Shown here piece after piece: positions 1,774 through 60,942 of a DNA stretch of 64,000 nt. The stretch is from NCBI RefSeq assembly GCF_006345805.1, contig NC_042997.1:98456001-98520000 (forward strand), given 5' to 3'. Below the pieces are notes generated by a model. That model saw nothing but the letters and a program-made list of their open reading frames with translations, was not told the origin of the DNA and did no database searches. The position numbers were made by a program, and so were the translations under genes. This stretch comes from Octopus sinensis. Lineage: Eukaryota. Position 1 is the first letter of the stretch; each line of letters starts with the position of its first letter.

Positions 1774-3964
1774 GTTATGTAACAAAATTTTTTTTTTTAA
1801 ATGAGAAAGGGGAAAAAAAGTTGCATTGTTTTTTGCAAAAGAATAATAATAAATATGTACAAAAATTTAAAAATAAGTACTCCGATACATTGTGAGTTCG
1901 TTGTGTATCTTGAGTTTAATGATTGTTCACGAAAAAGTTACCTTGAGGTATTAGGATCCGATGGGATTAAGACCATGTGTTGTTTGGTTTAATTAAGGAC
2001 GTTGGCAAAAACAGGAAGTAGTAGTAATTGTGGTTCTTCAGTTCCTGTGTTGTGAATAAGGGGAGACAACTCTTTTGAGTTTTTCAATTTTTGTTTCACA
2101 AAATCCCCTGTAATCAAGGCTGCTAATAAACCCCAAATTATAAAATTATCATTTTAGCTTCATTTGTATTATCTTTTTTTATATAATTGTTTGTTAACTT
2201 AACTTTCAGATTTTAACACTTTATTTATATTATTTTCTAATTATATAAATTTGCATAGACCAATTTATAATTACATTTCAGATTGTTATATCATATATAA
2301 TAAAAATGATGGTAATAACAACAATAGTAAAAATGATATTTAAAGAATATAAGTTTTAGCTTGAAGTGATGAATCTATGGTATCCTTATATATTTGTGTG
2401 AGTCCATCCTTGAAGAATGAGGTAGAAAAGGGAAGTTTGATCAACGAGGAGTTTGTATATTAAGTTGTGTTTGGAATTTTTCAATAAAGAGATTCTCCTT
2501 GTTAATTCTCTCCTGTGTGGTGATCCCGTCTTTACATTGGTAGAAGGGGAATATATAGAATTTGGGGTTTAAGTCTTTAGCGCATGAGTCTATGTGGTCA
2601 CTCAGTGGAATTTGTCGGTATTCCGGGAGATTTATTTTGTTCTTTATGCACCGCTACTCGTTTACGTAATGGTGCATACCCTTTATGCACCGCTACTCGT
2701 TTACACATACATAGAAAATGTTTTTTGAAATGCCAATCTGTGAATGAAAATGTTCAGGCGTTTACATGGTAGGTAGATCCGAGAGAAATAGCAGCCAAAT
2801 CTTTAACAGTTAGAAAATGTTTGGCATTTCAATCATCACCAAAAAATGAAACTGTAAGAATTTAAAGGGAAATTGTATGTAAGAAGTAAAGCAGAAATGA
2901 TTTTTAACTGTACTGCCAAAGTTCAGCAACTTAATAGCATATGTATCCAGTTTAAGAAAAGTGAAGATAAAAGGTAAAGTGGAGAAGTATGGAAGAAGTC
3001 ATTGTTATATGCTTAAAAGAAACGTACCTTTTAGAGAAGAAAATAAAGGTGAGAGCTATTGTATTGGACATCCGTATAATGTGAGAGCAGAAATTGAAAG
3101 AAGAATTATGAAATGGACGTGTGTATGTGTCTTTTTCTAGGTCATTTGGAGTGATTTTTGCAATCAGCACGAGCTTATTTGTATTTACCTCTGGAGGGGT
3201 GGAAAGAGGAACTTTTGAAGTTGTCGTGAATGCGAAAGAGACATAGTATGAGTGAAGTTGGCGTGAACCGGAAGAATTGATGTGCGTGTGTGTGTGTGAG
3301 AGAGGGTGTGTGTGTTTGAGAAGGAGTGTATGTGTGTGAGAGAGAGAGAGAGTGTGTATGTGTGTGTTTGAGAGAGAGAGAGAGAGAGAGAGAGAGTGTG
3401 TGTATGTGTGTCTATGATGGGGTGTGCGATATGGACGAGAGATTTAACTGAAATTTTGTTATTAACTTGTCGTGAGAGAATGTGTGAGTGAGTAACAGAG
3501 AATAATACCCACCACTCCAGAGATAAATACAAACTATATACTCATATATGCTTATCCACTTCTACATACATATGTACTATTACACACATACACACACTCA
3601 CACACACACGCACACACACATACATACATATGTATAAACATACATACGCACACACACATACATACATAAATATGACACAGTATTCAAGGGCAACGGTTAA
3701 AAATCGAACATGCATTATATTAACCTATCTGCTCTTTATTTTTTTAAATTTTATATATGCATAAACGCATACATATACAATACATACATACATCCATACA
3801 TATTCATATGTGCATGCATATGCATTTTTTTTATAGCACCACACACGCACATACGTATCAAACAACCTACGCTCATACGGTTATATATAACTGCACATAT
3901 GTGGTTTAGCACCAGGCATTTCAACATGTATGTAAGGGTTACATGTAAACAAGAGAGAGGGGTG

Positions 3965-5542
3965 GTTATAGAATGGTCCTCCTGAATGGGATCTGGATGT
4001 TACTTCATTCGGATTTTCGGTTGAGAGTAGGTTTGTATTCTTGTATACAAACAGCTTCTGTGACCTGTCTCAACATTGCATCGGTGGGATGTGTTGATAG
4101 GATGTTTAACTTAAGTTTCCCTAAGGATCCCTTGTGGCAGTCTACAGCATGCTGATAGAAGATGGAGTTTGGTTTCCTTTCAATGTAGTTGTCTAGGTGT
4201 TCTTTGAACCTATCATTGATATTCCTAGAAGTCTCACCTATGTATGACTCTGGGTTAGTTGCGCAACCTCCTTCTTGGCACTCAATTTGGTATACCGTGC
4301 CCTTGGTTTTGCAGTTCACATGTGGGTTTGTCGAACATACTGCACAATTACTTTGACACGTGATTCTATCAAATGGATATGATCTACATAATGCAGATTT
4401 GATAGTCCTAACTGTCTTTTCTACAACCTTGATTTTAAGGCCAGTAGTGCGCAGGATTTTCTTGAATGCCTCACTTAGCTCGTTCTTAGGTGTGGCGTCA
4501 ACGAACATTACCCCGTGAAATTTCCTGTTATCATACCAAGTATCGTTTCTCTTCCTTTTGTTGGTGACTCTCTCCAACCTATTCCAAACTTGTTGCAGTA
4601 TAGGGGGCATATACCGTTTTCGTCGTCCCTTAGAATGCGTTCGAATCTTGCTTTCGCTCTTTTGTACACTCTGACTCTATCGTCTTGTGTGTATCCGGAG
4701 CGTTGCATTCGGAATATGTAGTGCTGGATGTGTTGTTGTCGTTCTTGTGGTTGGCATAGTGGGGATACATTCCTCATTACTCTAACTAAGTCTGCCACTA
4801 GGATGTTGAGTTTGGTAGTACTCGACATAGCTGAGTCACTACGGATTACTAGTGGATTAGCCATCGGCTTCTGATAGTGTGAGTGGAGTATACAGGGTTT
4901 AATGGTTCCATTAACCATAGTATCTTCTATCCATAGCTCAGTATCTAGGACGGGTAATCGTTTACTGGGGTGTTTAGAGGGGTAGTCTATGGTAACTTTT
5001 ATACTGCTGTGGATAGAGTCAGCTATGTGTTGTATAGATGTCATCACCTGTTCTTCACTTAGTAGAGAGTCCATAACTGTGTCTGTATTATAACATTTCA
5101 CGACAAGGTTAATGTCGTCGACGTAACGAGAGTACATAGCTAAGTGGATGTTACGGGTTGCTAGGCACTGTTTAAAATGTCTGTCCCACCATACCATGAA
5201 GAGGTTTGCAACGTCACCGGCGATCTCTACTCCAAAAGCACCGCCTTTTGTCTGCTTATACAGTTTGTTGTCAAACCTAAAAATATGGGTTTTAAGTGTA
5301 ATTCTCAGGCTGTCACCGATAGCATGTGTGATAGTAGTTCTGATGTCGTGTGCATCTGAAGGTGGGTAATCTGGCTTCGTCCAGCCCTGCCAGCGCTCAC
5401 AGTGAGTCTTTCTGTATGCTGAGTTAATGGTAGGTGGTCTACCTCGTTTGTTACGGGTGGGACAAGCATACAGAAGGTTATCGTGTGACAGGTATTCATT
5501 GGTACACGTCAGGCCAGGAAGAGCCCTAGTTCATATACATAG

Positions 5543-5545
<3 letters not shown>
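3965..5545 (-). mobile_element. Penelope-like retroelement (RT + GIY-YIG), 5'-truncated and frameshifted
   Basis: ORF 4508-5197 has the RT motif YSRYVDDINLV, with upstream KQTKGGAFG; ORF 4005-4610 has a Cys cluster and GIY-YIG GTVYQIEC...YIGETSRNINDRFKEH...EAVCI...LNRKSE; abuts (TA)n at ~5545. Confidence 0.9.
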
Positions 5546-5613
<68 letters not shown>

Positions 5614-5689
5614 TATATATAATATATATATATATTATATATACATCATATATTGTATTATATATATATACATATTGTAATTTTTTTTT

Positions 5690-5923
5690 ATGGAAAACTA
5701 GCTGTCATTCATCCATAACAGCGTCCCTTCTCCAAGCGAACAATGCTGTCCATGGGAAAGGCAAAGGCGGATACATCTTTGCACCAGTGACGTCGCAACC
5801 CATTTCTACACCTGAGTGAAATAAAGTGTCTGGTGAGGAACACAACACTCAGCGCTCTCCGAGAATCGAACTCACAACCTCACGATCGTAAACTCGATGT
5901 TCTAAGCACTGAGGCATGCGCCT

Positions 5924-5927
<4 letters not shown>
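5690..5927 (-). mobile_element. tRNA-derived SINE (family C); related copies at ~6650-6985(-), 18170-18390(+), 37205-37405(-), 39200-39540(+)
   Basis: Minus-strand head with B-box GAGTTCGATTC; shared CCAGTGACGTC...TTTCTACA(G/C)CTGAGTGAA body with 6830-6870. Confidence 0.6.
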
Positions 5928-5982
<55 letters not shown>

Positions 5983-6449
5983 CAAGGAAACAAGCTCTTA
6001 TAGGAATGGAAACATCCAGCTGGTTAACTTGTTTAATGCCCAGTGTAGTTTCTAAAATACAAATGGGTATATATACAATATACAATAATAAAAGTAAATT
6101 CGAGAGTTAAACTGATGAATTAAATCCATTCATTGAAGCCAGTACCGTATTCTAATTCAATATCGGTGGAATGAACCAAGTAATAGAATTAAGGAAAAAT
6201 AATAAATAAATAAACTATTTATTGTGCTGACTCTTTTGTTTTTGTGGAGGTTTCCTACGCACTTACTCAATAATTGCATTTTTTGTATATTATCTTTTTG
6301 TGGAACTTGGCTTGTTTATTATTATATTAACTTTCGCTTACATTTCTATTGACAAAAACATTTTAACAACACAATAAATTTCACATGATGAAATCGAAAC
6401 AAAGCCCATTGATATTAGAAACTGCTTATAATAATAATTATAATAATAA

Positions 6450-6640
6450 TCCTTTCTGCTATAGGTACAAGGCCTGAAATTTTGGGGAGGGGACTAGCAG
6501 GTTACATCGACCCAAGTTCTCATCTCGAAAGGATAAAAAGTAAAGTCGACCTCGGCGGAATTTGAACTCACAACGTAGCGATGGGCAAAAAACCGCTACG
6601 CATTTCGTCCAGCGTGCTCACAATTCTGACATCTCTTAAA
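6450..6640 (-). mobile_element. SINE (family B); related copies at ~36060-36250(-), 37405-37500(-), 38490-38712(-), 54480-54565(-)
   Basis: GAAAGGAT(A/G)AAA...AAAGTCGACCTCGGCGGAATTTGAACTCA motif shared with the 44380-45100 copies; next to (AAT)n. Confidence 0.65.
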
Positions 6641-7049
6641 TATAATATAAAGACCCCCTTTGATCATGAATGTCCATGGGATTACACATAGAAATTTCCC
6701 CTCCGAGGCACAAGTCCGAGCAAGACTGTTTGTTTGTGGAAGATCAGCAGTCACACATGCATATCAGTCTCCCCACTCCATGCTACCGATGTTGTCCAAA
6801 GGAAAGGCAAAAGCCGATATAGCTTGTCGCCAGTGACGTCACAACTGATTTCTACAGCTGAGTGAACTTAGGCAACGTGAAATAAAGTGTTTTGCTCCAG
6901 AAACCAACACGGAGCCCGGTCCAGGAATCGAGCTAACTACTTCGTCATTGTGAGCCCGACGCTCAAACCACTGAACCATATACATTCACAATAACAACAA
7001 CAACAACAACAACAACAATAATAATAATAATATAATAATAATAATAATA

Positions 7050-7300
7050 ATATATTCACAGATATGACAGTTGGGACATGCAACTACAGACAAATACATA
7101 ACAAAAGCCCCAGGACTAACAAATATATATAACATACAGAAAATAGGACTACTAAATACTACACACATCCTACGTAAAACACTTTCAATACAATAACTAT
7201 AAAAGCATCACAACAGCACATACCCAAGGCACACAGGACTGTGCTCGGTAGTACAGTGAAAGGACGTTATAAAAATAAGACTACTGAATAATGATAATAA
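7050..7300 (+). mobile_element. 3' end of an R4/Dong-like non-LTR element
   Basis: Encodes NIQKIGLLNTTHILRKTLSIQ*; near-identical to 56050-56255; flanked by AAT repeats. Confidence 0.75.
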
Positions 7301-7309
7301 AAAAAGATA

Positions 7310-8990
7310 GTTCAGGCAAAACAAATTGTTTAAAGCAAATCAGAAGAAACTGTTTCAAGAACTAGATGGGCAAATACACGTGACAATGATACTAGATGCA
7401 GAGAAAGCAAGGCATTCTGGAGATTTATCTGGAGCCAATCTGTAGAGCATAATGATGAAGCGGAGTGGTTGCATGAAATCCAAGATACGTTAAAAACTAG
7501 AGAAGTCCAAGAAGACATAAATGTAACCACAAATTTGATAAAATAGCAGTTAAGAAAATTTCCAAATTGGAAGAACCCTGGATCGGATGGAGTCCAAAGT
7601 TATCGGATGAAGAAGCTGAGAGGGCTCCATGAAAGGATAGCACAAAAGCTAGAGGAGTGCTTGCAGGAAGATGCAGTACCAAGCTGCATGACAAAGGCAA
7701 AGACATTCTTATGTGCCGAGGATCCTGAAAAGGGAAATGTTGCATCCAAATTTATATCAGGTGCTTTGGCTGGTGAACTGTATAAATACTTGGAAAAAGT
7801 GGGTTACTGCCCATTGAACAGAAAATATGCCGAAAAAGGAGCCGGGGGACGAAGGATCTAATTATCAGGAACTGCAAGGAAAGACATACAAACCTGAGCA
7901 TGGCATGGGTTCACTATCGCAAAGCATACAATATGATACCATACTCCTGGATAATAAGAACAATGGAAATGTATGGAATAGCAGAGAATATGAGAAGCTT
8001 TATATGGAATAGCGTGAAATACTGGAGAACGAAATTTACAGCAGAGAAGCAAGTACTAGAAGAGGTGAAAATCAAAAGAGGAATCTTCCAGGGAGACAGT
8101 GTGTACCCATTGATATTCATGCTGGGAATGATCCCCTTGAGTGAAATTCTACAGAAAAGGTAAGAGAACACTAAACCATTTGTTATTCTTGGATTACCTG
8201 GAGCGATTAAAAAAAACTGAGGCAGAACTGGAAAGTTTAGCCCAATCTAAGAATTTTCTCCAATGATATTAAGATGGAGTTCGGATTCTCAAAATGTGCT
8301 ACGGTGGGGATGAGACGAAGAAAGCTTGCCAGGACAGAAGGCATATGGTTGCCAGGTGGTGAAATGATGAAGGCAATTCAACCTCAGTCCAGCTATAAAT
8401 ACCTGGGAATACTTGAGGCAGTTAGAATCAAAGAACACGACATAAAGGATAAGACAACAAGAGAGTACCTCCAGCGAGTGAGAAAAATATTGGCTTCAAA
8501 GCTGAATGCCAGAAACATAATCTCGGCAATGAACTCGTGCGCAGTCGCAGTAGTTCATTATGGCACTGGAATCTTGAATTGGACCGAGGAGAGGCTAAAG
8601 GAAATGGACAGGAAGTCAAGAAAGCTCCTAACGATGTATGGAGCCCATCATCCACGTGCAGACACTGATTGCCTATACATGTAGAGAGAAAATGGCGGAA
8701 AGGGACTAACAAGTGTGGAAGAATGCGTGCGTATCGAACTCGAGAGATTAATGAGATACCTAGCTCAAAATAAAGAAACCTTGTTAGCGACAGATAGGAA
8801 CGAGGGAGTAATTGAGAGCAGAGAAAAATGGAAAACAAAGGAAGAAGTACAAAATGGACCTGAAGATGAATTACGCAAGAAGGGACTACACTATCAATTC
8901 CAAGTAACCTCAACAGATGTTGCTTGAAATAATAGTGGGATTGGCTGATAAAAGGACTATACTTGCAGCGCAGGATCAGAAAATTAAGGA
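7310..8990 (+). pseudogene. Degraded R4/Dong-like non-LTR retrotransposon RT fragment
   Basis: Broken ORFs with [48 protein letters not shown] and MDRKSRKLLTMYGAHHPRAD; colinear with the 58879-59787 RT. Confidence 0.85.
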
Positions 8991-9461: not shown

Positions 9462-9555
<94 letters not shown>

Positions 9556-9786
9556 TCTTATAATAAGGGGCTAAAGAAGATATTTCTGAAGCCAATATAC
9601 TGGTTATCCACTTATAATCCACTTGCTACAGGAAGAGTTAAACTGAAAATCGGGCAACTAACCTTTAGAAAATTTAAATTTCTACGAGAGATTTAGAAAT
9701 TCAATATTTCTTATTTTGATAATCAGTGAATAAACTTCACTGAATATAAATATATACAATTACGAAGTCGAGGCAAATATCACCAG

Positions 9787-11486
9787 CCGACCTATTTTTT
9801 TTTGGGGAGTCGTTATTCTGGTGTGTTGGTTTCGAGTGCGTCATTGTGAAGAGGTTGTGAGTTCGAGTTCGTTGCTGGAGGACGTGGTGAATTTTTTATT
9901 TACAGATTTTTGAAAATGCAAGACCAGACTTATGCGAGAGCAGCAGGCAGAGGCCTGGTTGCCAGTGAACTAGAAATGGAAGAAGTGGTAGTCGAGAAGA
10001 AGACTTTAGAAAAATATTTCGACAGTTTGAAGAGGGAGGGTGACTGCGTGAGAGTCACACCGTCCGAAGAAGAAGAAAACAACGCGGAGAAACGTATGAT
10101 AACATACAGGACATGGTGTGTGGCGACAAGAAAAATAGAAGTAGCAGAAACGGAAGAAATAGAGAAATGTCTGAAAGGAATTGAGGGAGAACCCACCTTT
10201 TTCAACAGAGGAAGGAAATATACCGCAATGGTGGTACGTTTTAAAAATGAAAATGAAGCAAGAATGAATGCAACAAGAATTTTGAAAACGGAAAGTTGGA
10301 CTTTATTACCGAGTTACTGTGGAAAGAGGGCAGTCAGAATAAGAATTAGTAGAATTTCGCCCGAACTTAACATGGAGAGGATATTAGCGGCAGTAGTTTT
10401 CAACTGCAAGGAAAGTGTGGAGGTGTTGAAGGTGGAGAAGTCAACAGAAGTTAAATGGTGGGATATGCGGTACAGGTTCTGGCACATATAACCGTGCCAG
10501 ACCTATACAACATCCCGGAGGAGTTGGTCTTCCCTGATGAGACACGGCTTAGAGTCGTGGTAGAGGGAAGACCCCCAGTCTGCTATAATTGTAAATTAAG
10601 AGGCCACAGGAAGGATGTGTGCCCGCTGGAGAAAACGATAGCACCGGAGGCTGTAACGAAGGAGTGTAAAGATACGTGTGTGGAGGAGGGAGAAGTGCAG
10701 GAGGAAACGAAAGCAGTGGAGGCGCAAACGGAGGAGCAGCTAATTGAGGATGTGGAAGAAGAACGTGCAAGTGCAGAGGATGAAAGAACAGAAGATAGGA
10801 AGAGAACAAGGGTGGAATCACCACCGAAAGTTCTAAAAAAGAAAAAAATCAAAAGCAAGATAACAGAAGAAAAAGAAGAGAGAACGTGCAAAGAAACGGA
10901 AGTAAAAGAGAAGGCGAGAGAGCAGACAATGACAGAAGCTGACCAAGAATGGGAGACAAAAGTGAAAGAGCAGTTGGAAGCTTGTAAAAAGGGAAGAAGA
11001 CCTGCAGGAAAAAACCTGAAAGCATTCGTGATGTATATCAAAGACACAGAAGTAGAAAAAAGACTTGCAGGTAAGAAAGAATTGATCAGGGTAAAGTTGC
11101 ACCCAAAACTGTATGGTGACACTGTGAAAGGGGTAGTTATAGAAAAAGAGACATTCACAAAATTGAAGAAGATATTTAATGCTGTTTATGTAGCGCAATA
11201 TGTACGATATGACAATTTGCCAAATGTAATAGACCAGATGGAATTGATAAAGTATATGACGGACGAACGTCCAATATAAAAGAACTGGAATATATGTAAT
11301 GTTAAAATGTAAAATTGTAAATTGTAAAATTGTAAAATGTAAAATTGTATTTTAAACGGAACTGCGAGTTGGGGGTTCTAACTCATTACACATAATTCAT
11401 CTTTATTTCATATTTTATTTTTACTTTATGTCCCGTCTTGTAATGTCCCGTCTGCATTCGGGCCATCGTGCCCATAATAAAGATAT
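9787..11486 (+). mobile_element. ORF1-only Tx1/L1-like non-autonomous retrotransposon, copy A
   Basis: 1.7-kb unit: 5' CCGACCTA(T)n(G)nAGTCG, single ORF1, 3' UTR with GTAAAAT repeats and AATAAA; bounded by AATATCACCA at 9776 and 11487; no RT or endonuclease. Confidence 0.8.
9916..11279 (+). CDS. Tx1/L1-type ORF1-like nucleic-acid-binding protein with CCHC zinc knuckle (~454 aa once a one-base frameshift at ~10460 is repaired)
   Basis: N-terminal TYA motif, RRM-like middle, RLRVVVEGRPPV-CYNCKLRGHRKDVC (CX2CX4HX4C), acidic/basic tail; the frameshift is a missing G (TGGTGGGAT versus TGGTGGGGAT in copy B, which reads KWWGYAVQV). Confidence 0.7.
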
Positions 11487-11496
11487 AATATCACCA

Positions 11497-13189
11497 ACCG
11501 ACCTATTTTTTGGGGGGAGTCGTTATTCTGGTGTGTTTGTTTTGAGTGCGTCATTGTGAAGAGGTTGTGAGTTCGAGTTCGTTGCTGGAGGACGTGGTGA
11601 ATTTTATTTGGAGATTTTGAAAATGCAAGACTAGACGTATGCGAGAGCAGCAGGCAAAGGCCTGGTTGCCAGTGAACTAGAAATGGAAGAAGTGGTAGTC
11701 GAGAAGAAGACTTTAGAAAAATATTTCGACAGTTTGAAGAGGGAGGGTGACTGAGTGAGAGTCACACCGTCCGAAGAAGAAGAAAACAACGCGGAGAAAC
11801 GTATGATAACATACAGGACATGGTGTGTGGCGTCAAGAAAAATAGAAGTAGCAGAGACGGAAGAAATAGAGAAATGTCTGCAAGGAATTGAGGGTGAACC
11901 TACGTTTTTCAACAGAGGAAGGAATATACCGCAATGGTGGTACGTTTTAAAAATGAAAATGAAGCAAGAATGAATGCAACAAGAATTTTGAAAACGGAAA
12001 GTTGGACTTTATTACCGAGTTACTGTGGAAAGAGGGCAGTCAGAATAAGAATTAGTAGAATTTCGCCCGAACTTAACATGGAGAGGATATTAGCGGCAGT
12101 AGTTTTCAACTGCAAGGAAAGTGTGGAGGTGTTGAAGGTGGAGAAGTCAACAGAAGTTAAATGGTGGGATATGCGGTACAGGTTCTGGCACATATAACCG
12201 TGCCAGACCTATACAACATCCCGGAGGAGTTGGTCTTCCCTGATGAGACACGGCTTAGAGTCGTGGTAGAGGGAAGACCCCCAGTCTGCTATAATTGTAA
12301 ATTAAGAGGCCACAGGAAGGATGTGTGCCCGCTGGAGAAAACGATAGCACCGGAGGCTGTAACGAAGGAGTGTAAAGATACGTGTGTGGAGGAGGGAGAA
12401 GTGCAGGAGGAAACGAAAGCAGTGGAGGCGCAAACGGAGGAGCAGCTAATTGAGGATGTGGAAGAAGAACGTGCAAGTGCAGAGGATGAAAGAACAGAAG
12501 ATAGGAAGAGAACAAGGTGGAATCACCACCGAAAGTTCTAAAAAAGAAAAAAATCAAAAGCAAGATAACAGAAGAAAAAGAAGAGAGAACGTGCAAAGAA
12601 ACGGAAGTAAAAGAGAAGGCGAGAGAGCAGACAATGACAGAAGCTGACCAAGAATGGGAGACAAAAGTGAAAGAGCAGTTGGAAGCTTGTAAAAAGGGAA
12701 GAAGACCTGCAGGAAAAAACCTGAAAGCATTCGTGATGTATATCAAAGACACAGAAGTAGAAAAAAGACTTGCAGGTAAGAAAGAATTGATCAGGGTAAA
12801 GTTGCACCCAAAACTGTATGGTGACACTGTGAAAGGGGTAGTTATAGAAAAAGAGACATTCACAAAATTGAAGAAGATATTTAATGCTGTTTATGTAGCG
12901 CAATATGTACGATATGACAATTTGCCAAATGTAATAGACCAGATGGAATTGATAAAGTATATGACGGACGAACGTCCAATATAAAAGAACTGGAATATAT
13001 GTAATGTTAAAATGTAAAATTGTAATTGTAAAATTGTAAAATGTAAAATTGTATTTTAAACGGACTGCGAGTTGGGGGTTCTAACTCATTACACATAATT
13101 CATCTTTATTTCATATTTTATTTTTACTTTATGTCCCGTCTTGTAATGTCCCGTCTGCATTCGGGCCATCGTGCCCATAATAAAGATAT
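11497..13189 (+). pseudogene. ORF1-only element, middle copy (chimera of B 5' part and A 3' part)
   Basis: Shares the stops GACTAG/GACTGA and other 5' variants with copy B up to ~11920, then matches copy A including its frameshift. Confidence 0.8.
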
Positions 13190-13199
13190 AATATCACCA

Positions 13200-14917
13200 A
13201 CCGACCTATTTTTTGGGGGAGTCGTTATTCTGGTGTGTTTGTTTTGAGTGCGTCATTGTGAAGAGGTTGTGAGTTCGAGTTCGTTGCTGGAGGACGTGGT
13301 GAATTTTATTTGGAGATTTTGAAAATGCAAGACTAGACGTATGCGAGAGCAGCAGGCAAGGCCTGGTTGCCAGTGAACTAGAAATGGAAGAAGTGGTAGT
13401 CGAGAAGAAGACTTTAGAAAAATATTCGACAGTTTGAAGAGGGAGGGTGACTGAGTGAGAGTCACACCGTCCGAAGAAGAAGAAAACAACGCGGAGAAAC
13501 GTATGATAACATACAGGACATGGTGTGTGGCGTCAAGAAAAATAGAAGTAGCAGAGACGGAAGAAATAGAGAAATGTCTGCAAGGAATTGAGGGTGAACC
13601 TACGTTTTTCAACAGAGGAAGGAAATATGCCACAGTGGTGGTACACTTTAAAAATGAAAATGAAGCAAGAAAGAATGCGACAAAAATTCTAAAATCTGAA
13701 AGTTGGACTTTATTACCGAGTTACTGCGGAAAGAGGGCAGTCAGAATAAGAATTAGTAGGATTTCGCCCGAACTTAACATGGAGAGGATATTAGCGGCAG
13801 TAGTTTTCAACTGCAAGGAAAGTGTGGAGGTGGTGAAGGTGGAAAAGTCAACAGAAGTTAAGTGGTGGGGATATGCGGTACAGGTTCTGGCACATATAAC
13901 CGTGCCAGACCTATACAACATCCCGGAGGAGTTGGTCTTCCCTGATGAGACACGGCTTAGAGTCGTGGTAGAGGGAAGACCCCCAGTCTGTTATAATTGT
14001 AAATTAAGAGGCCACATGAAGGATGTGTGCCCGCTGGAGAAAACGATAGCACCGGAGGCTGTAACGAAGGAGTGTAAAGATACGTGTGTGGAGGAGGGAG
14101 AAGTGCAGGAGGAAACGAAAGCAGTGGAGGAGCAAACGGAGGAGCAGCTAATTGAGGATGTGGAAGAAGAACGTGCAAGTGCAGAGGATGAAAGAACAGA
14201 AGATAGGAAGAGAACAAGGGTGGAATCACCACCGAAAGTTCTAAAAAAGAAAAAAATCAAAAGCAAGATAACAGAAGAAAAAGAAGAGAGAACGTGCAAA
14301 GAAAAGGACGAACAGACAAAGACAGAGGTAAACCTAGAATGGAGAAAAAACGTGAGAGAACAGTTGGATGCTTGTAAAAAGGGAAAAAGACCGGTAGGAA
14401 AATACCTGAAAGTATTCGTGTTGTACGTCAAAAACACAGATGTGGAAAAAAGACTTGCAGGTAGGAAAGGATTAATTAGGGTTAAATTACACCCAAAACT
14501 GCATGATGACGATGTGAAAGGGGTAGTTGTAGATAAGAGGAACATTTACTAAATTGAAAAGTATGTTTGATGAGGTTTATTTAACGTATTATGTATGTTA
14601 TGACAATTTGCCAAATGTGATAGACCAGATGGAATTAACAAAGTACATTACGGACGAACATCCAATAGAACTGGAATATATGTAATTGTAAAATTGTAAA
14701 ATGTAAAATTGTATTTTCAACTGGAATATATGTAATTGTAAAATGTAAAATTGTATTTTAAACGGAACTGCGAGTTGGGGGCTCGTAAGCCGTTCCATCT
14801 AACTCATTACACAGAATTCATCTTTATTTCATATTTTATTTTTTACTTTATGTACCCCATGTCCCGTCTTGTAATGTCCCCTCTGCATTCGGGCCATCGT
14901 GCCCATAATAAAGATAT
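13200..14917 (+). pseudogene. ORF1-only element, copy B (diverged C-terminus, early stops)
   Basis: ORF 13455-14552 with CYNCKLRGHMKDVC; TAG at codon 4; the 3' third differs from copy A; followed by AATATCACCAGCTGACC. Confidence 0.8.
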
Positions 14918-14927
14918 AATATCACCA

Positions 14928-15007
14928 GCTGACCGGTTTCTGCTACTCTAGGCCGATGAAGGACAACGATCCTGAAACACGGTGTCCCTAGATGCAGTTC
15001 CGGCAGC
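14928..15007 (+). ncRNA. Type I hammerhead ribozyme with extended stem I, core CCGAUGA (U4C)
   Basis: GCTGaCCGGtttCTGCtacTCTAGG-CCGATGA-AGGA-caacga-TCCT-GAAA-CAcggTG-TC-CCTAGAtGCAGttCCGGCAGC; predicted cut after C14986 (GUC). Confidence 0.8.
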
Positions 15008-15290
15008 CGGGGGTGTTTGTCTCCCCTTCGTATATGTATATAAGGACACAGGAAAAAATGTGTCAAAGCTATCAGGAGGCGTCGATGCCTCCTAGGGCTA
15101 TACAGCGGTGGTGTACCCCCTACTGTCACGTTCTTGTTAGATTGACAGTATACAACCATTCTATCGCCCCACCACCGTACATGTCTCTACGAGAGATTTA
15201 GAAATTCAATATTTCTTATTTTGATAATTAGTGAATAAACTTCACTGAATATAAATATATACAATTACGAAGTCGAGGCAAATATCACCA

Positions 15291-15370
15291 GCTGACCGGT
15301 GTCTGCTACTCTAGGCCGATGAAGGACAACGATCCTGAAACACGGTGTCCCTAGATGCAGTTCCGGCAGC
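15291..15370 (+). ncRNA. Second copy of the same hammerhead
   Basis: Identical core at 15310-15355, one 363-bp unit downstream. Confidence 0.8.
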
Positions 15371-15539
15371 CGGGGGTGTTTGTCTCCCCTTCGTATATGT
15401 ATATAAGGACACAGGGAAAAAATGTGTCAAAGCTATCAGGAGGCGTTCGATGCCTCCTAGGGCTATACAGCGGTGGTGTACCCCCTACTGTCACGTTCTT
15501 GTTAGATTGACAGTATACAACCAATTTTAATTTCGTTAT

Positions 15540-15599
15540 CTCTATATTGAATCAATTTCGGAATTAATCCTATAAAGGATACATTCTTCGTCAGTAGAG
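15540..15599 (-). ncRNA. Type I hammerhead of the 491-bp unit (intact core, inverted copy)
   Basis: Minus strand: CTCTA-CTGACGA-aGAAT...ATTCc-GAAA-TTGAtTCAA-TA-TAGAG. Confidence 0.7.
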
Positions 15600-16056
15600 C
15601 TTACGAGGGAATATAAATAAAATACTTACATGCGTTTATGGAAAAAGCAGAAGCTAAAAACATAACTACATTTAAGTACATCATTTATATCTAAAAATAA
15701 AAATTCCTTGGTCAGTCTCAGAAACAACCTGTTGACTTTAGCCCTTTATTATAAGATGTTCATATTTCAACCGTAAAGTTTGTTTTAATATACTGCCACA
15801 CTTCCTGATGGAATTCTTTTCTGTAGAGAAAGGGGCTTCATCCTATATTTGTTAGTAGTAAATCCATTACTGCTTGCTTACAGGGGAGTGGTAACCATTA
15901 AAATATGTAGCGGCGAAAAGTCAACAGGTTGTTCTCAGACTGACCAAGGAATTTTTTATTTTTAGATATAAATGATGTACTGAAATGTAGTTATGTTTTT
16001 AGCTTCTGCTTTTTCCATAAACGCATGTGAGTATTTTATTTATATTTCCTCGTAAG

Positions 16057-16116
16057 CTCTACTGACGAAGAATGTATCCTTTATAGGATTAATTCCAAAA
16101 TTGATTCAATATAGAG
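16057..16116 (+). ncRNA. Same hammerhead on the plus strand with G12 mutated to A (probably inactive)
   Basis: CTCTA-CTGACGA...ATTCC-AAAA-TTGATTCAATA-TAGAG. Confidence 0.6.
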
Positions 16117-16345
16117 ATAACGAAATTTAAATTTTCTAAAGGTTAGTTGCCCGATTTTCAGTTCAATTTTCCCTGTAACAGTGGATTATAAGTGGATAAC
16201 CAGTATATTGGCTTCTGAAATAGCTTCTCTAGCCCTTTATTATAAGATGTTCATATTTCAACCGTAAAGGTTTTTTTAATATACTGCCACGCTTCCTGAT
16301 GGAATTCTTTTCTGTAGAGAAAGGGGCTTCATCCTATATTTGTTA

Positions 16346-16418
<73 letters not shown>

Positions 16419-28719: not shown

Positions 28720-30255
28720 TTACATGTGTATGCTCGCTCTATAACCGTGTTTACTAGAGTATTTTTTAGAAAAAATAATGAAAAATAGCTCAGAATTGCA
28801 GAGAAGACAGAATTTCTTGCCTTTGTCATATGGTATCGAAATTGAGAGGATCAACCATTCTAAATGAAATTGTTCATTGTGGTCTTTTAAATCCCAAATC
28901 AGTTTGCTGAGACCGGTACTATTCCGTTTATTTCTATCCCTAAATGTTGAGTAATGGATAGAAATTCTTTTAGACAACTCTAACGATGTGCTTCCAATGT
29001 AAAATCGTACTTTATTACGAGTACTGATTATACACTGGTATATAGAATTTTTGATCTTAGAGTTACTTGACATAAACTTAATTCTATTGGAATTGACTTC
29101 AGATACAATAACCTTGTTATTAATATTTCTGGAGGGTTGGATGGTATTAGCTAAATTAATGTTAGTATTAGTAAATGTATTAATATTTAACAGTTTGTTA
29201 TTATGAGAAGATATAATTTGCAAGAGATATTTTGTGTTTGAAAAACCTATCCCAACCTTATGTGAATTGATTATAGAGTAATATCTAGAATTGTTTGGAA
29301 AATTCCTAGCAATAGCTTGACGAAACAGCAGTGGGAGATTAGATTTAATTTGTATCCCGTAAGGAATTATTAACCAAATATTTTTACTAGTATTCATAGC
29401 GTAATTACTTTTGAAGGTGTTACTTTTAGATCGATAATAGGGGATTAAATAAGGGTTATCTGCCTTCATTTGCTTTGTATCGGTGCGTAAGTTATGTTTG
29501 TTATCAATAATTCTTTTGCGACTAGAAATCTTATCTACATTATTGAATTTACAATTAGACTGAGCAGAATCAATGTAGAAAATTTTTTCTGTATAACCTG
29601 CTTTGATTAAGGCAGAGTTATAGAATTCAGCGTTATTATTGAAAATATCAACATTAGCAGGTAATTTAGATAATCTAAATGAAATATTCTTAACTAAGTT
29701 CTTAGTAATTCCTCCAGGATGATTACTAAATTTGCTAATGTACTTAAGATTGGTCAACGGTTTATGATATGGGAAGTAAGAGTCACTGTGTAAATTAAGC
29801 GTAATATCTAAAAAGTTGGCCTTCGTCAGATCGTCATCAAAAACGATTTTTAAGCCCATTCTACTGAAAAAATTAACTAAACTATTCTTAACATTTTGTA
29901 CCTTTTGGTTGGAAACATTTTGGAGGTAAAGTAAACAATCATCACGATATAGACCTCCATAAATGTTAGGGAACTCTTCAGCCATTTCAAAAAGAATATA
30001 TATACAGACCAAATCTGCTATCTGTGCTGAATCAGAACTTCCCATTGGTATATCGAAACTATCTGGTGTGTCTTTACGGACCCACAACTTATCATCAAAT
30101 TTAATAATAGATCTTCTGGCTGCCAACACAACATTAATTTCTTCTCTGGTGAGACCAGCTTTGTTATGAGCAAGCCAACGTGCCCTATTAAGTACTATTG
30201 GATTAATAGATGAATAAAAATTGGAAATATCAAACTGGATAAACTTAGTACTCAC
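28720..30255 (-). CDS. PLE reverse transcriptase + GIY-YIG endonuclease (N-terminus frameshifted and truncated; homology extends to ~30500)
   Basis: QFDISNFYSSI, FDIPMGSSDSAQIADL, GGLYRDD, NFLDITLNL, PYHKP; GIY-YIG SIYQC...FYIGST...RISIH...CLLCNSE; upstream LKDHK and RLICP motifs. Confidence 0.85.
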   Translation of the reverse strand: MSTKFIQFDISNFYSSINPIVLNRARWLAHNKAGLTREEINVVLAARRSIIKFDDKLWVRKDTPDSFDIPMGSSDSAQIADLVCIYILFEMAEEFPNIYGGLYRDDCLLYLQNVSNQKVQNVKNSLVNFFSRMGLKIVFDDDLTKANFLDITLNLHSDSYFPYHKPLTNLKYISKFSNHPGGITKNLVKNISFRLSKLPANVDIFNNNAEFYNSALIKAGYTEKIFYIDSAQSNCKFNNVDKISSRKRIIDNKHNLRTDTKQMKADNPYLIPYYRSKSNTFKSNYAMNTSKNIWLIIPYGIQIKSNLPLLFRQAIARNFPNNSRYYSIINSHKVGIGFSNTKYLLQIISSHNNKLLNINTFTNTNINLANTIQPSRNINNKVIVSEVNSNRIKFMSSNSKIKNSIYQCIISTRNKVRFYIGSTSLELSKRISIHYSTFRDRNKRNSTGLSKLIWDLKDHNEQFHLEWLILSISIPYDKGKKFCLLCNSELFFIIFSKKYSSKHGYRASIHM

Positions 30256-30610
30256 CTTATTGTTAATAGAACTAAACCAGTCAACTACTTCAAGTGAATT
30301 AGCCCATAAACTAAGTTTTAATGTTTTGATTAAATTAGGAATATATATATCTAGTATATTTTTACTAAGGATACCGATGTCAGAGCTAGAAGGGCAGATA
30401 AGCCTTAATGATGGGTTAGTAAAAGAAAATTGGTTTGTGATCCTTCAAAATGAACCGAGGTTGCTTAGGAACAAGTGGTTCTGTCTTCATTTGTAGGTTA
30501 TATTTCTCCATGATTTTCATAGCCTCAATGTTGGCTTTCTTAAGTATTCTTTTATCAGCAATTTTATACTATTTCTTTATTACTATTTATTGACGAGTTT
30601 CGTTTTTTTC

Positions 30611-59800: not shown

Positions 59801-60842
59801 CAAATTTCGGAATTAGAGATAGACATACAAGAAACAGGCACAGAAAAAGCTAAGCGCATGAAAACCCGTGCTAAATCTGCGGCCTTAGATATTCTGAATG
59901 ATAAATGGCAAGAAAAACCTTTCTATGGCAAATACCCAAAGAGAGTGAATAATGCAGATGTTGACAAAGCCCTGACCCATCAATGGCTAATGGCCTCTGG
60001 CTTAAAATCTGAAACAGAAGGGTTTATCATAGCAGCTCAAGATCAATGCCTACCAACATATTAAAGAACGGCAGTAGCCCAACATGTCGTGTATGTCAAC
60101 AACAAAATGAAACACCATTGATCATGTTGTCTCCAAGTGCAGTCTTCTAGCGCCTACAGAGTATCTCAACAGGCATGATAGAGCTGCAGAATATATTCAC
60201 TGGGTAATTTGCAAAAACCCGGATTTGCCCCATGAAAAAAACTGGTGGGAACACAAACCACCTCCAGTGCTTGAAAATGACCACATCTCACTCCTCTGGA
60301 ACTTCACCATTCAAACTGACAGAAAGATAGATGCAAATAGGCCAGACATCATATTGAAAGACTTCAGACAAAAAAGATGCCTCCTCATTGATATGACTGT
60401 CCCAATCGATATAAACGTATCTGTCAAGATCTACCAAAAACTGAGCAAATATAAAGATCTTGAAATAGAAATCAGCAAAATGTGGAAGCTGAACACTAAA
60501 ACAATACCTGTTGTCATAGGGGCCCTGGGAATGATAGCAAAAGGGGCTGATTGCTACCTAACTCAGATACCAGGAAACCCCAAAATGGCAGAAATTCAAA
60601 AGATAGTGCTCATGGGAACTACTCATATCCTACGCAAAATACTTTCTATGTAATCCCAAGGTTAAAAACAAACGTAATTTGCGTTTTTTTTAGACATTCA
60701 CTAGTACAACACCAAAAAAACCCCCAAATATATGGCACACTAGGCATCACAACAACATGAACTTCCAACCTGTTGTCTCTTGAGGTCTCTGGGTGAGACT
60801 TGGAGCCAACTTGTACAAATATAAAGCAAAAGTCAAACATAG
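56801..60842 (+). mobile_element. Near full-length R4/Dong-like non-LTR retrotransposon (RT + CCHC + RLE) with stops and frameshifts, inserted in (AAT)n
   Basis: Colinear ORFs 57035-60653: WKSPGKDKIPNFW, QKGCKRGSCGCKDQL, GIFKRDSLSPLLF, HLIYMDDLKLF, YKYLGI, CRVCQ..H..C, NRPDII..LIDMTVP..KYKDL; (AAT)n on both flanks. Confidence 0.93.
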
Positions 60843-60942
60843 AATAATAATAATAATAATAATGATAATAATAATTTTCACCTCGCAATAACCACGCCTC
60901 GGATAACCCTCACTGGCCATGGCACCGACAAGTCATCCGGAT

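Follow-up and report, generated by a model that had tools for sequence, protein, structure and literature searches.

An ORF1-only non-LTR element inserted at a homologous site in hammerhead-bearing, retrozyme-type repeats of Octopus sinensis

Organization of the array and its host repeat

A stretch of 64,000 nucleotides of the Octopus sinensis genome (contig NC_042997.1, positions 98,456,001 to 98,520,000 of the forward strand; hereafter the window) contains three units, A, B, and C, each built around the first open reading frame (ORF1) of a retrotransposon without long terminal repeats (non-LTR). The units lie head to tail, each opening with AATATCACCA and closing with AATAAAGATAT, and interrupt one array of a 363-bp repeat, termed H1, that bears a predicted hammerhead ribozyme (Table 1). 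The unoccupied site is visible 363 bp downstream at 15277-15299, and AATATCACCA is found in the window at 9776, 11487, 13190, 14918, and 15281. The ORF listing holds no reverse transcriptase (RT) or endonuclease frame within the units, and Pfam returns only a sub-threshold zf-CCHC match. This agrees with the original prediction, made from the window alone, of three 1.7-kb ORF1-only units; the junction repeat that it placed at the first four of these positions and the empty site were both located in the sequence. We consider it likely, with a probability of about 0.74, that these units belong to an ORF1-only element that uses a homologous site at the base of the hammerhead-bearing rod in Penelope-type retrozyme repeats and that is mobilized by target-primed reverse transcription (TPRT) through an autonomous long interspersed nuclear element (LINE) of the L1/Tx1 group acting at that site.

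In this assembly ORF1 is broken in all three units, and units B and C have a stop at codon 4 as well as frameshifts. Pairwise comparison gives 118 substitutions over 1681 aligned bases between units A and C, one over 428 between units B and C at the 5' end, and none over 1272 between units B and A beyond the C-like 5' part. By these counts, units A and C were inserted separately and stem from different source elements, while unit B is a product of crossover between them, that is, a local duplication, or a misassembly. The two independent insertions proposed earlier are thus retained, as A and C in place of A and B, and a local duplication applies to unit B alone, not for the difference between A and C or for the family.

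Table 1. Features of the array and of its surroundings in the window
Feature	Position	Strand	Description
Palindromic element, left-arm piece into which the retrozyme inserted	9547..9681	.	Reverse-complement match to 16122-16256
Upstream partial H1 unit (363-bp hammerhead repeat)	9682..9775	+	Unit positions 269-363; 98% match to 15186-15297
5' junction	9776..9792	+	Duplicated target (about AATATCACCA) and target-like bases that are likely element-borne
Unit A, ORF1-only element	9776..11486	+	1711 bp; ORF1 at 9916-11279, split by a frameshift near 10459; independent insertion
Unit B, apparent chimera	11487..13189	+	1703 bp; first ~435 nt C-like, rest A-like; local duplication or assembly artefact
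Unit C, ORF1-only element	13190..14917	+	1728 bp; ORF1 broken, longest frame 13503-14552; independent insertion, 3'-most copy
Element 3' tail	14860..14917	+	TGTAATGTCCC motif, short hairpin, AATAAA at 14907; layout common to autonomous family C (tails side by side)
Complete 363-bp H1 retrozyme-type unit	14918..15280	+	Regenerated 3' of the insertion
Predicted type I hammerhead	14948..14991	+	Core CCGAUGA, U4C variant; predicted cut after 14986
Empty target site in next H1 unit	15277..15299	+	Start of the long hammerhead-bearing rod
Second, partial H1 unit	15281..15523	+	Ends near unit position 243-247; second hammerhead at 15311-15354, predicted cut after 15349
Palindromic host element, rest	15524..16348	.	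Followed by (TA)n

The hammerhead motif consists of stem I (CUAGG/CCUAG), the core CCGAUGA, a 4-bp stem II, GAAA, a short palindromic stem III, and GUC, with cores at 14953 and 15316. The first predicted cut falls 69 nt past the end of the element, not the approximately 60 nt first estimated. An Rfam gathering scan of the window reported no hammerhead, its sole match being U4-like, and the assignment therefore rests on the motif and on covariation. In 13 hammerheads from H1 and the related repeat H2, 94.8% of cells pair, both partners vary in five of the nine pairs, and covariation scores 0.45, compared with 0.165 ± 0.03 after shuffling, values to be read with the caveat that the structure was drawn from those 13 sequences and that a single stem I pair is in register. 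Unconstrained folding retains stems I and II, not the catalytic core (z −1.84). Given the U4C core and the A-U closing pair, self-cleavage of H1 is a prediction only.

There are 1937 H1 candidates in the genome; their ends are concentrated at unit positions 247 and 302, and inverted 5' arms occur. This layout of inverted 5' arms and fixed 3' ends is the one described for Penelope-like elements (PLEs) (bioRxiv 2021.04.23.441226), and H1 further resembles non-LTR retrozymes in its non-coding units within the 150-450 bp range, its type I hammerhead, its copy number, and its partial tandems. Hammerheads active in dimeric form typically have such a short palindromic helix III (PMC4209133, PMC7229834), and non-LTR retrozymes are now argued to descend from PLEs (bioRxiv 10.64898/2026.07.22.740005). 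Among the loci fetched here, a sample rather than the whole genome, no PLE-like RT fragment is directly joined to H1 or H2. Contigs from runs guessed to be RNA cover both the element and the repeat; ends, strand, and level cannot be read from them.

The ORF1-only family and its insertion site

A genome search for the element yielded 74 matches from 40 scored loci among 243 candidates, full copies being about 1.7 kb long and 78-91% identical. Intact ORF1s of 447-454 aa are present elsewhere, at L007, L008, L013, L022, and L025. Across nine intact copies the N-terminal 240 codons have a median dN/dS of 0.14 (33 of 36 pairs, those with dS > 0.05), compared with 0.42 for the C-terminal part; ORF1 is under purifying selection. 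ORF2 follows element sequence only in a chimera with a second LINE family, described below, which speaks against the possibility, raised with the original prediction, that copies elsewhere carry ORF2.

The structure prediction proposed for ORF1 returned a tandem fold resembling RNA recognition motifs (RRMs). The model is confident over approximately residues 20-235 (overall mean pLDDT 59.8), and by fold it is closest to proteins with tandem RRMs, among them IMP3 RRM12 (E 5e-5; whole-chain TM-scores are low). An Atlas look-up of ORF1 gave CCHC and ZCCHC3-type RNA-binding clusters (0.90-0.93), and the protein is accordingly modelled as two predicted RRMs and a CCHC knuckle. No L1 ORF1p is among the fold matches listed, a PDB sequence search with the ORF1 profile returned zinc knuckles and no L1 ORF1p, and against fish and lancelet LINE proteins the knuckle alone matched this profile (probability 7% and 16%). 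The named relatives of ORF1 come from Octopus and Argonauta, and the protein is 25-35% identical to the ORF1 of two autonomous LINE families, B and C, of the same genome. The dispersed copies, the intact ORF1s, the dN/dS of 0.14, and the homology of ORF1 to that of autonomous LINEs establish the element as a long-lived ORF1-only lineage and not a one-off deletion. With its octopod relatives and no match to L1 ORF1p, it is not a mammalian HAL1 proper, as defined by an L1-type ORF1p and an origin from mammalian L1.

Its insertion is site-specific. Of the 40 loci, 29 adjoin H1, 24 of them through the 5' junction and 26 through the 3' junction, three more adjoin the homologous site of H2, and eight adjoin neither. 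The proposal of an L1/Tx1-group, ORF1-only element specific for a retrozyme-type repeat is thereby borne out, and most of the scored loci do not have the random flanks that would have contradicted it. Across the 30 best H1 loci, 39 of 40 target sites are empty. In all five examples that were folded, element and repeat meet at the base of the long hammerhead-bearing rod; in the window this rod starts with AAUAUC at 15281. Copies within one array often belong to different clades, and different subfamilies are stacked in tandem. Distances among elements show no significant correlation with those among their H1 flanks (Mantel rho 0.09, p 0.10, 22 loci).

The same structural position is used in diverged repeats. 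A search for a sister clade gave 45 matches, 30 of which were returned as loci, five of them already known; 21 of the 30 run straight into a hammerhead repeat, five into a tandem neighbour, and four into other sequence, where the first count allows one mismatch and a stricter pattern without the U3-A8 core gave 9 of 30. The sister-clade targets include an older H1-like form, H2, and a third repeat, H3. H1 aligns with H2 with a score of 156 (61 ± 12 for shuffles) and with H3 with a score of 143.5 (46 ± 10), and the three sites have a loose common register, A-C...C-G after the nick. In the H3 subfamily (L283-L299), where the hammerhead core is of the U3-A8 type (TTGATAA), insertions likewise occupy the homologous site. 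A nested clade of the ORF1-only family with a different 5' end (L078-L082, L084) has switched target: its copies lie in arrays of LINEs, in an LTR-like stretch, and in a short repeat of another kind. Derivatives of 70-150 bp that consist only of element ends lie at the usual target at L244:5471-5600 and L037:1445-1516 and resemble SINE-like by-products.

Marks of TPRT include the target duplication, 5'-truncated copies at the site, and an 18-bp duplication at the off-target locus L070. Tails of several types converge on ATCACC, which puts the first nick at AAT/ATC to a precision of about 3 nt; the insertion point, originally called exact, is thus defined by the empty site, with the nick itself placeable only to this interval. 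The duplication is real, since L085 carries a local target variant on both sides of its insertion. The distal half of the 5' junction goes with the element, so that the junction repeat is not wholly a target-site duplication: by eye, 5' CCG faces a different 3' triplet at 8 of 13 loci, the reverse is seen at none, and the two match at five. In another clade this distal half is replaced by a C-run. Poly(A) is absent from the junctions. These junctions lead us to propose that both ends of the transcript lie within the target and that such bases may pair with the cut DNA; this would explain why related tails prefer different repeat subfamilies. Pairing of LINE RNA with the nicked target has been proposed for R1Bm and SART1Bm (PMC7265360).

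The series of steps that would account for these data begins with ORF1p binding its own RNA in cis, while the tail hairpin and AATAAA would recruit ORF2p of a partner. The bottom strand would be nicked near AAT/ATC, within the interval given above, and a few target-derived bases at both RNA ends would pair with the cut DNA, so that each lineage would be drawn to a particular retrozyme subfamily. Every insertion would restore the site, the next one would land in tandem, and the downstream hammerhead would be kept intact. In the window, insertions A and C would have come first, with unit B arising later by unequal crossover between them.

Autonomous LINEs and competing explanations

Family C, the candidate source of the enzyme, is a 5.5-kb LINE with a CCHC ORF1 and an ORF2 composed, by Pfam, of APE (apurinic endonuclease), RT, and zf-RVT domains; it has 1274 candidates in the genome. 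Counted by eye in the best 30, its 3' ends adjoin the homologous site of a hammerhead repeat in 22 cases, a tandem neighbour in six, and other sequence in two. Family C and ORF1-only copies are stacked at one regenerated target at L075/L120, L077/L121, and L251, and the two have a common tail layout of TGTAATGTCCC, a hairpin, and CATAATAAAGATA. The best PDB match of the family C ORF2 is human L1 ORF2p, and its top relatives are unnamed or hypothetical proteins of lancelets, corals, and fish, with no labelled Tx1 among those returned. By its domains, family C falls in the L1/Tx1 group, and its site specificity and domain layout suggest Tx1 proper. A likely candidate for the autonomous partner sought since the original prediction is thus present at the homologous site, whereas at the exact H1 target it occurs at one locus only. 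At that locus its 5' ends adjoin H1 three times, twice in chimeras with the 3' end of the ORF1-only element. That the partner is family C or a close subfamily is somewhat better supported than the contrary.

Two chimeras join the families, either by template switching or by deletion between neighbours. At L072:3977-6728 the 5' half of a family C ORF1 is combined with the 3' end of the ORF1-only element in two tandem copies, and at L074:2689-7490 the 5' half of the ORF1-only element is joined to family B inside ORF1. Family B (L089-L118; 3329 candidates) is a second autonomous L1/Tx1-group family, with 3' ends that mostly adjoin one repeat opening TTGGCATGGTTTGTCCGAT. As this repeat is different and has no hammerhead, family B was set aside as the partner. 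At window position 14997, where runs X1 and X7 show loose ends, a contig passes from H1 (unit position 80) into the tail of a B-type LINE, a hint that the opposite strand of the rod may hold a second insertion point. At L254:2000-7600 (G000:C3:19.73 Mb) a family C LINE, flanked by a duplication, lies in the 5' end of a sequence that we take to be U2 snRNA-like (small nuclear RNA); its 5' extension is copied from the usual retrozyme target (H2-type bases).

Several observations weigh against an element of this kind driven by family C. Scoring the best 40 of 243 candidates favours close relatives, and L242/L245 and L082/L084 look like duplicated loci, which lowers the independent counts slightly. 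Eight of the 40 loci lie outside hammerhead repeats, mostly in the nested clade with other targets. Identity to the family C ORF1 is 25-29%, which excludes a simple deletion of family C, and the closer ORF1, that of family B at about 35%, belongs to a family that targets another repeat. The likeness of the tail to that of family C is at the level of motifs. Two pattern searches revealed no 3' end of an autonomous LINE at H1. Of 29 exact matches to tail plus target, 28 are of the ORF1-only family and the remaining one, C21, is a chance match, and all 20 matches of the other search are likewise ORF1-only tails. The lone family C copy at H1 is truncated inside ORF2.

These points lend some weight to an alternative with the same lifestyle and another source of the enzyme, namely an autonomous LINE other than family C that is specific for H1 and is rare, extinct, or outside the scored candidates, with the endonuclease alone choosing the target. 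The two pattern searches, the single locus with family C 5' ends at H1, the presence of several other site-specific L1/Tx1-group families in the genome, and the chimera that links the 5' half of the element to family B are all compatible with it. Against it, one ORF1-only clade occupies H1-like, H2, and H3 sites in a loose common register, which fits one relaxed endonuclease lineage, and we regard a separate LINE as possible although clearly the less probable source. The local-deletion view, by which the units derive from one LINE and spread by tandem duplication with no site specificity, applies to unit B as a duplication product or artefact; for the family it is refuted by dozens of dispersed same-site ORF1-only copies, intact ORF1s, and purifying selection, and is scarcely credible.

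Two further explanations assign a larger role to the host repeat. It had been suggested that the hammerhead defines the 3' end of the element, and by this account it would cut read-through RNA 69 nt past the element to create the 3' end of the template, with the extension pairing with the target as in R1Bm, which is said to require downstream target sequence (PMC7265360). Two predicted hammerheads indeed lie downstream on the same strand, no poly(A) is seen at junctions, and 14852-14960 is spanned by a contig of 109 nt that belongs to a presumed RNA run and proves neither transcription nor an end. However, the off-repeat copies L070 (with the 18-bp duplication), L088, and L069 stop at a AATAAAGATA tail and carry no H1 sequence, so that copies outside the repeat have no repeat-derived 3' extension. 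The AATAAA 11 nt before the junction would normally direct cleavage within the duplicated target, the core has the U4C change and the A-U closing pair noted above, and at L240 the copied DNA extends through the cut site. The ribozyme thus probably does not make the 3' end of the element, and this account is unlikely. L240 (G000:C10:85658500-85668000, 2749-7894) is in turn the chief argument for a passenger role, in which insertion is rare and the element is then copied within retrozyme RNA by a Penelope-type RT. Based on the clustering of H1 ends and on comparison of the arms, this locus, which lies between (TA)n tracts, reads as an insertion with two arms, one ending at 247 and the other at ~300, and both hold the same element copy (99.5% over 996 bp, the next relative being 90%). 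It is one of 29 H1 loci, however, and a double hit with gene conversion could explain it; moreover, elements and flanks are not significantly correlated, arrays mix clades, solo copies occur without H1, and the same clade resides in non-identical H1, H2, and H3. Such passive spread is therefore improbable as the main route.

We thus favour TPRT by an autonomous LINE at the rod base. A fuller and tentative scheme, which we put forward with considerable doubt, is a three-tier parasite with two routes: the LINE enzyme would serve for landing at the rod base and RNA-end pairing would pick the subfamily, the site being tracked through the radiation of the retrozymes, and the element would then travel as cargo in ribozyme-processed RNA copied by a Penelope-type RT.

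Relation to known systems and other features of the window

The element resembles HAL1 in being non-autonomous, in coding for ORF1p only, in the long retention of coding capacity, and in presumably receiving ORF2p in trans (PMC5753468, PMC3627910). It differs in its octopus host, in its predicted RRM-RRM-CCHC ORF1, in its sequence-specific, tandem-stacked insertion, and in the lack of poly(A) at the junctions. Another parallel is given by SINEU (a short interspersed element) and Tx1-Mar in Mariner-N4_AMi of crocodilians and by Tx1L in Tx1D of Xenopus, where, much as here, one target within a non-autonomous transposon serves both a non-autonomous element and a LINE, there of the Tx1 clade, tandem insertions sandwich the duplication, and 5' extensions are derived from the target (PMC4494074). 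The SINEU system is distinct, however, in pairing a non-coding SINE with a DNA transposon, whereas the octopus passenger codes for ORF1p and its target is a ribozyme-bearing retroelement, entered at a homologous site across diverged subfamilies.

In its units of 363 bp, its predicted type I hammerhead, of which helix III is short and palindromic, its partial tandems, and its inverted arms with 5' truncation, H1 conforms to metazoan non-LTR retrozymes and the pseudo-LTRs of PLEs (PMC7229834, PMC4209133, bioRxiv 2021.04.23.441226, bioRxiv 10.64898/2026.07.22.740005); the available text of these sources describes no LINE targeting such repeats. R1Bm and SART1Bm are likewise site-specific APE LINEs with RNA that may pair with the nicked target to prime reverse transcription (PMC7265360). 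They are autonomous, belong to another clade, and use host-gene or telomere targets, and the pairing that is shown there is only proposed here. A literature search over titles and abstract openings, with Repbase, subscription journals, and supplements beyond its scope, found no LINE or half-LINE targeting a retrozyme. Each part of the system has a precedent; what seems to be new is that the parts occur together and that a single site is tracked through ribozyme repeats that have diverged.

These elements add a retroelement with predicted self-cleaving RNA to the safe-haven targets of site-specific LINEs, one that is exploited by a protein-coding hitchhiker. Near-identical tails that meet differing target sequences at the same structural position form a natural series for separating endonuclease from RNA-DNA pairing in target choice. 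If the transport of cargo suggested by L240 is true, the suspected Penelope-driven copying of retrozyme RNA would become testable through an internal coding marker.

The retrozyme itself sits, with a duplication of about 12 bp (9665-9681, 15523-15535), in the left arm of the palindromic element, which has (TA)n flanks, giving four nested layers. Upstream of the array, a degenerate non-LTR fragment with RT (weak RVT_1 match) at 7497-8930 is unrelated to it. On the minus strand, a fragment at 30199-30580 resembles the Penelope-like RT of L119, and the U4 snRNA-like sequence at 60809-60942, just over the Rfam threshold with a good 5' half and a poor 3' half, is probably a retrocopy.

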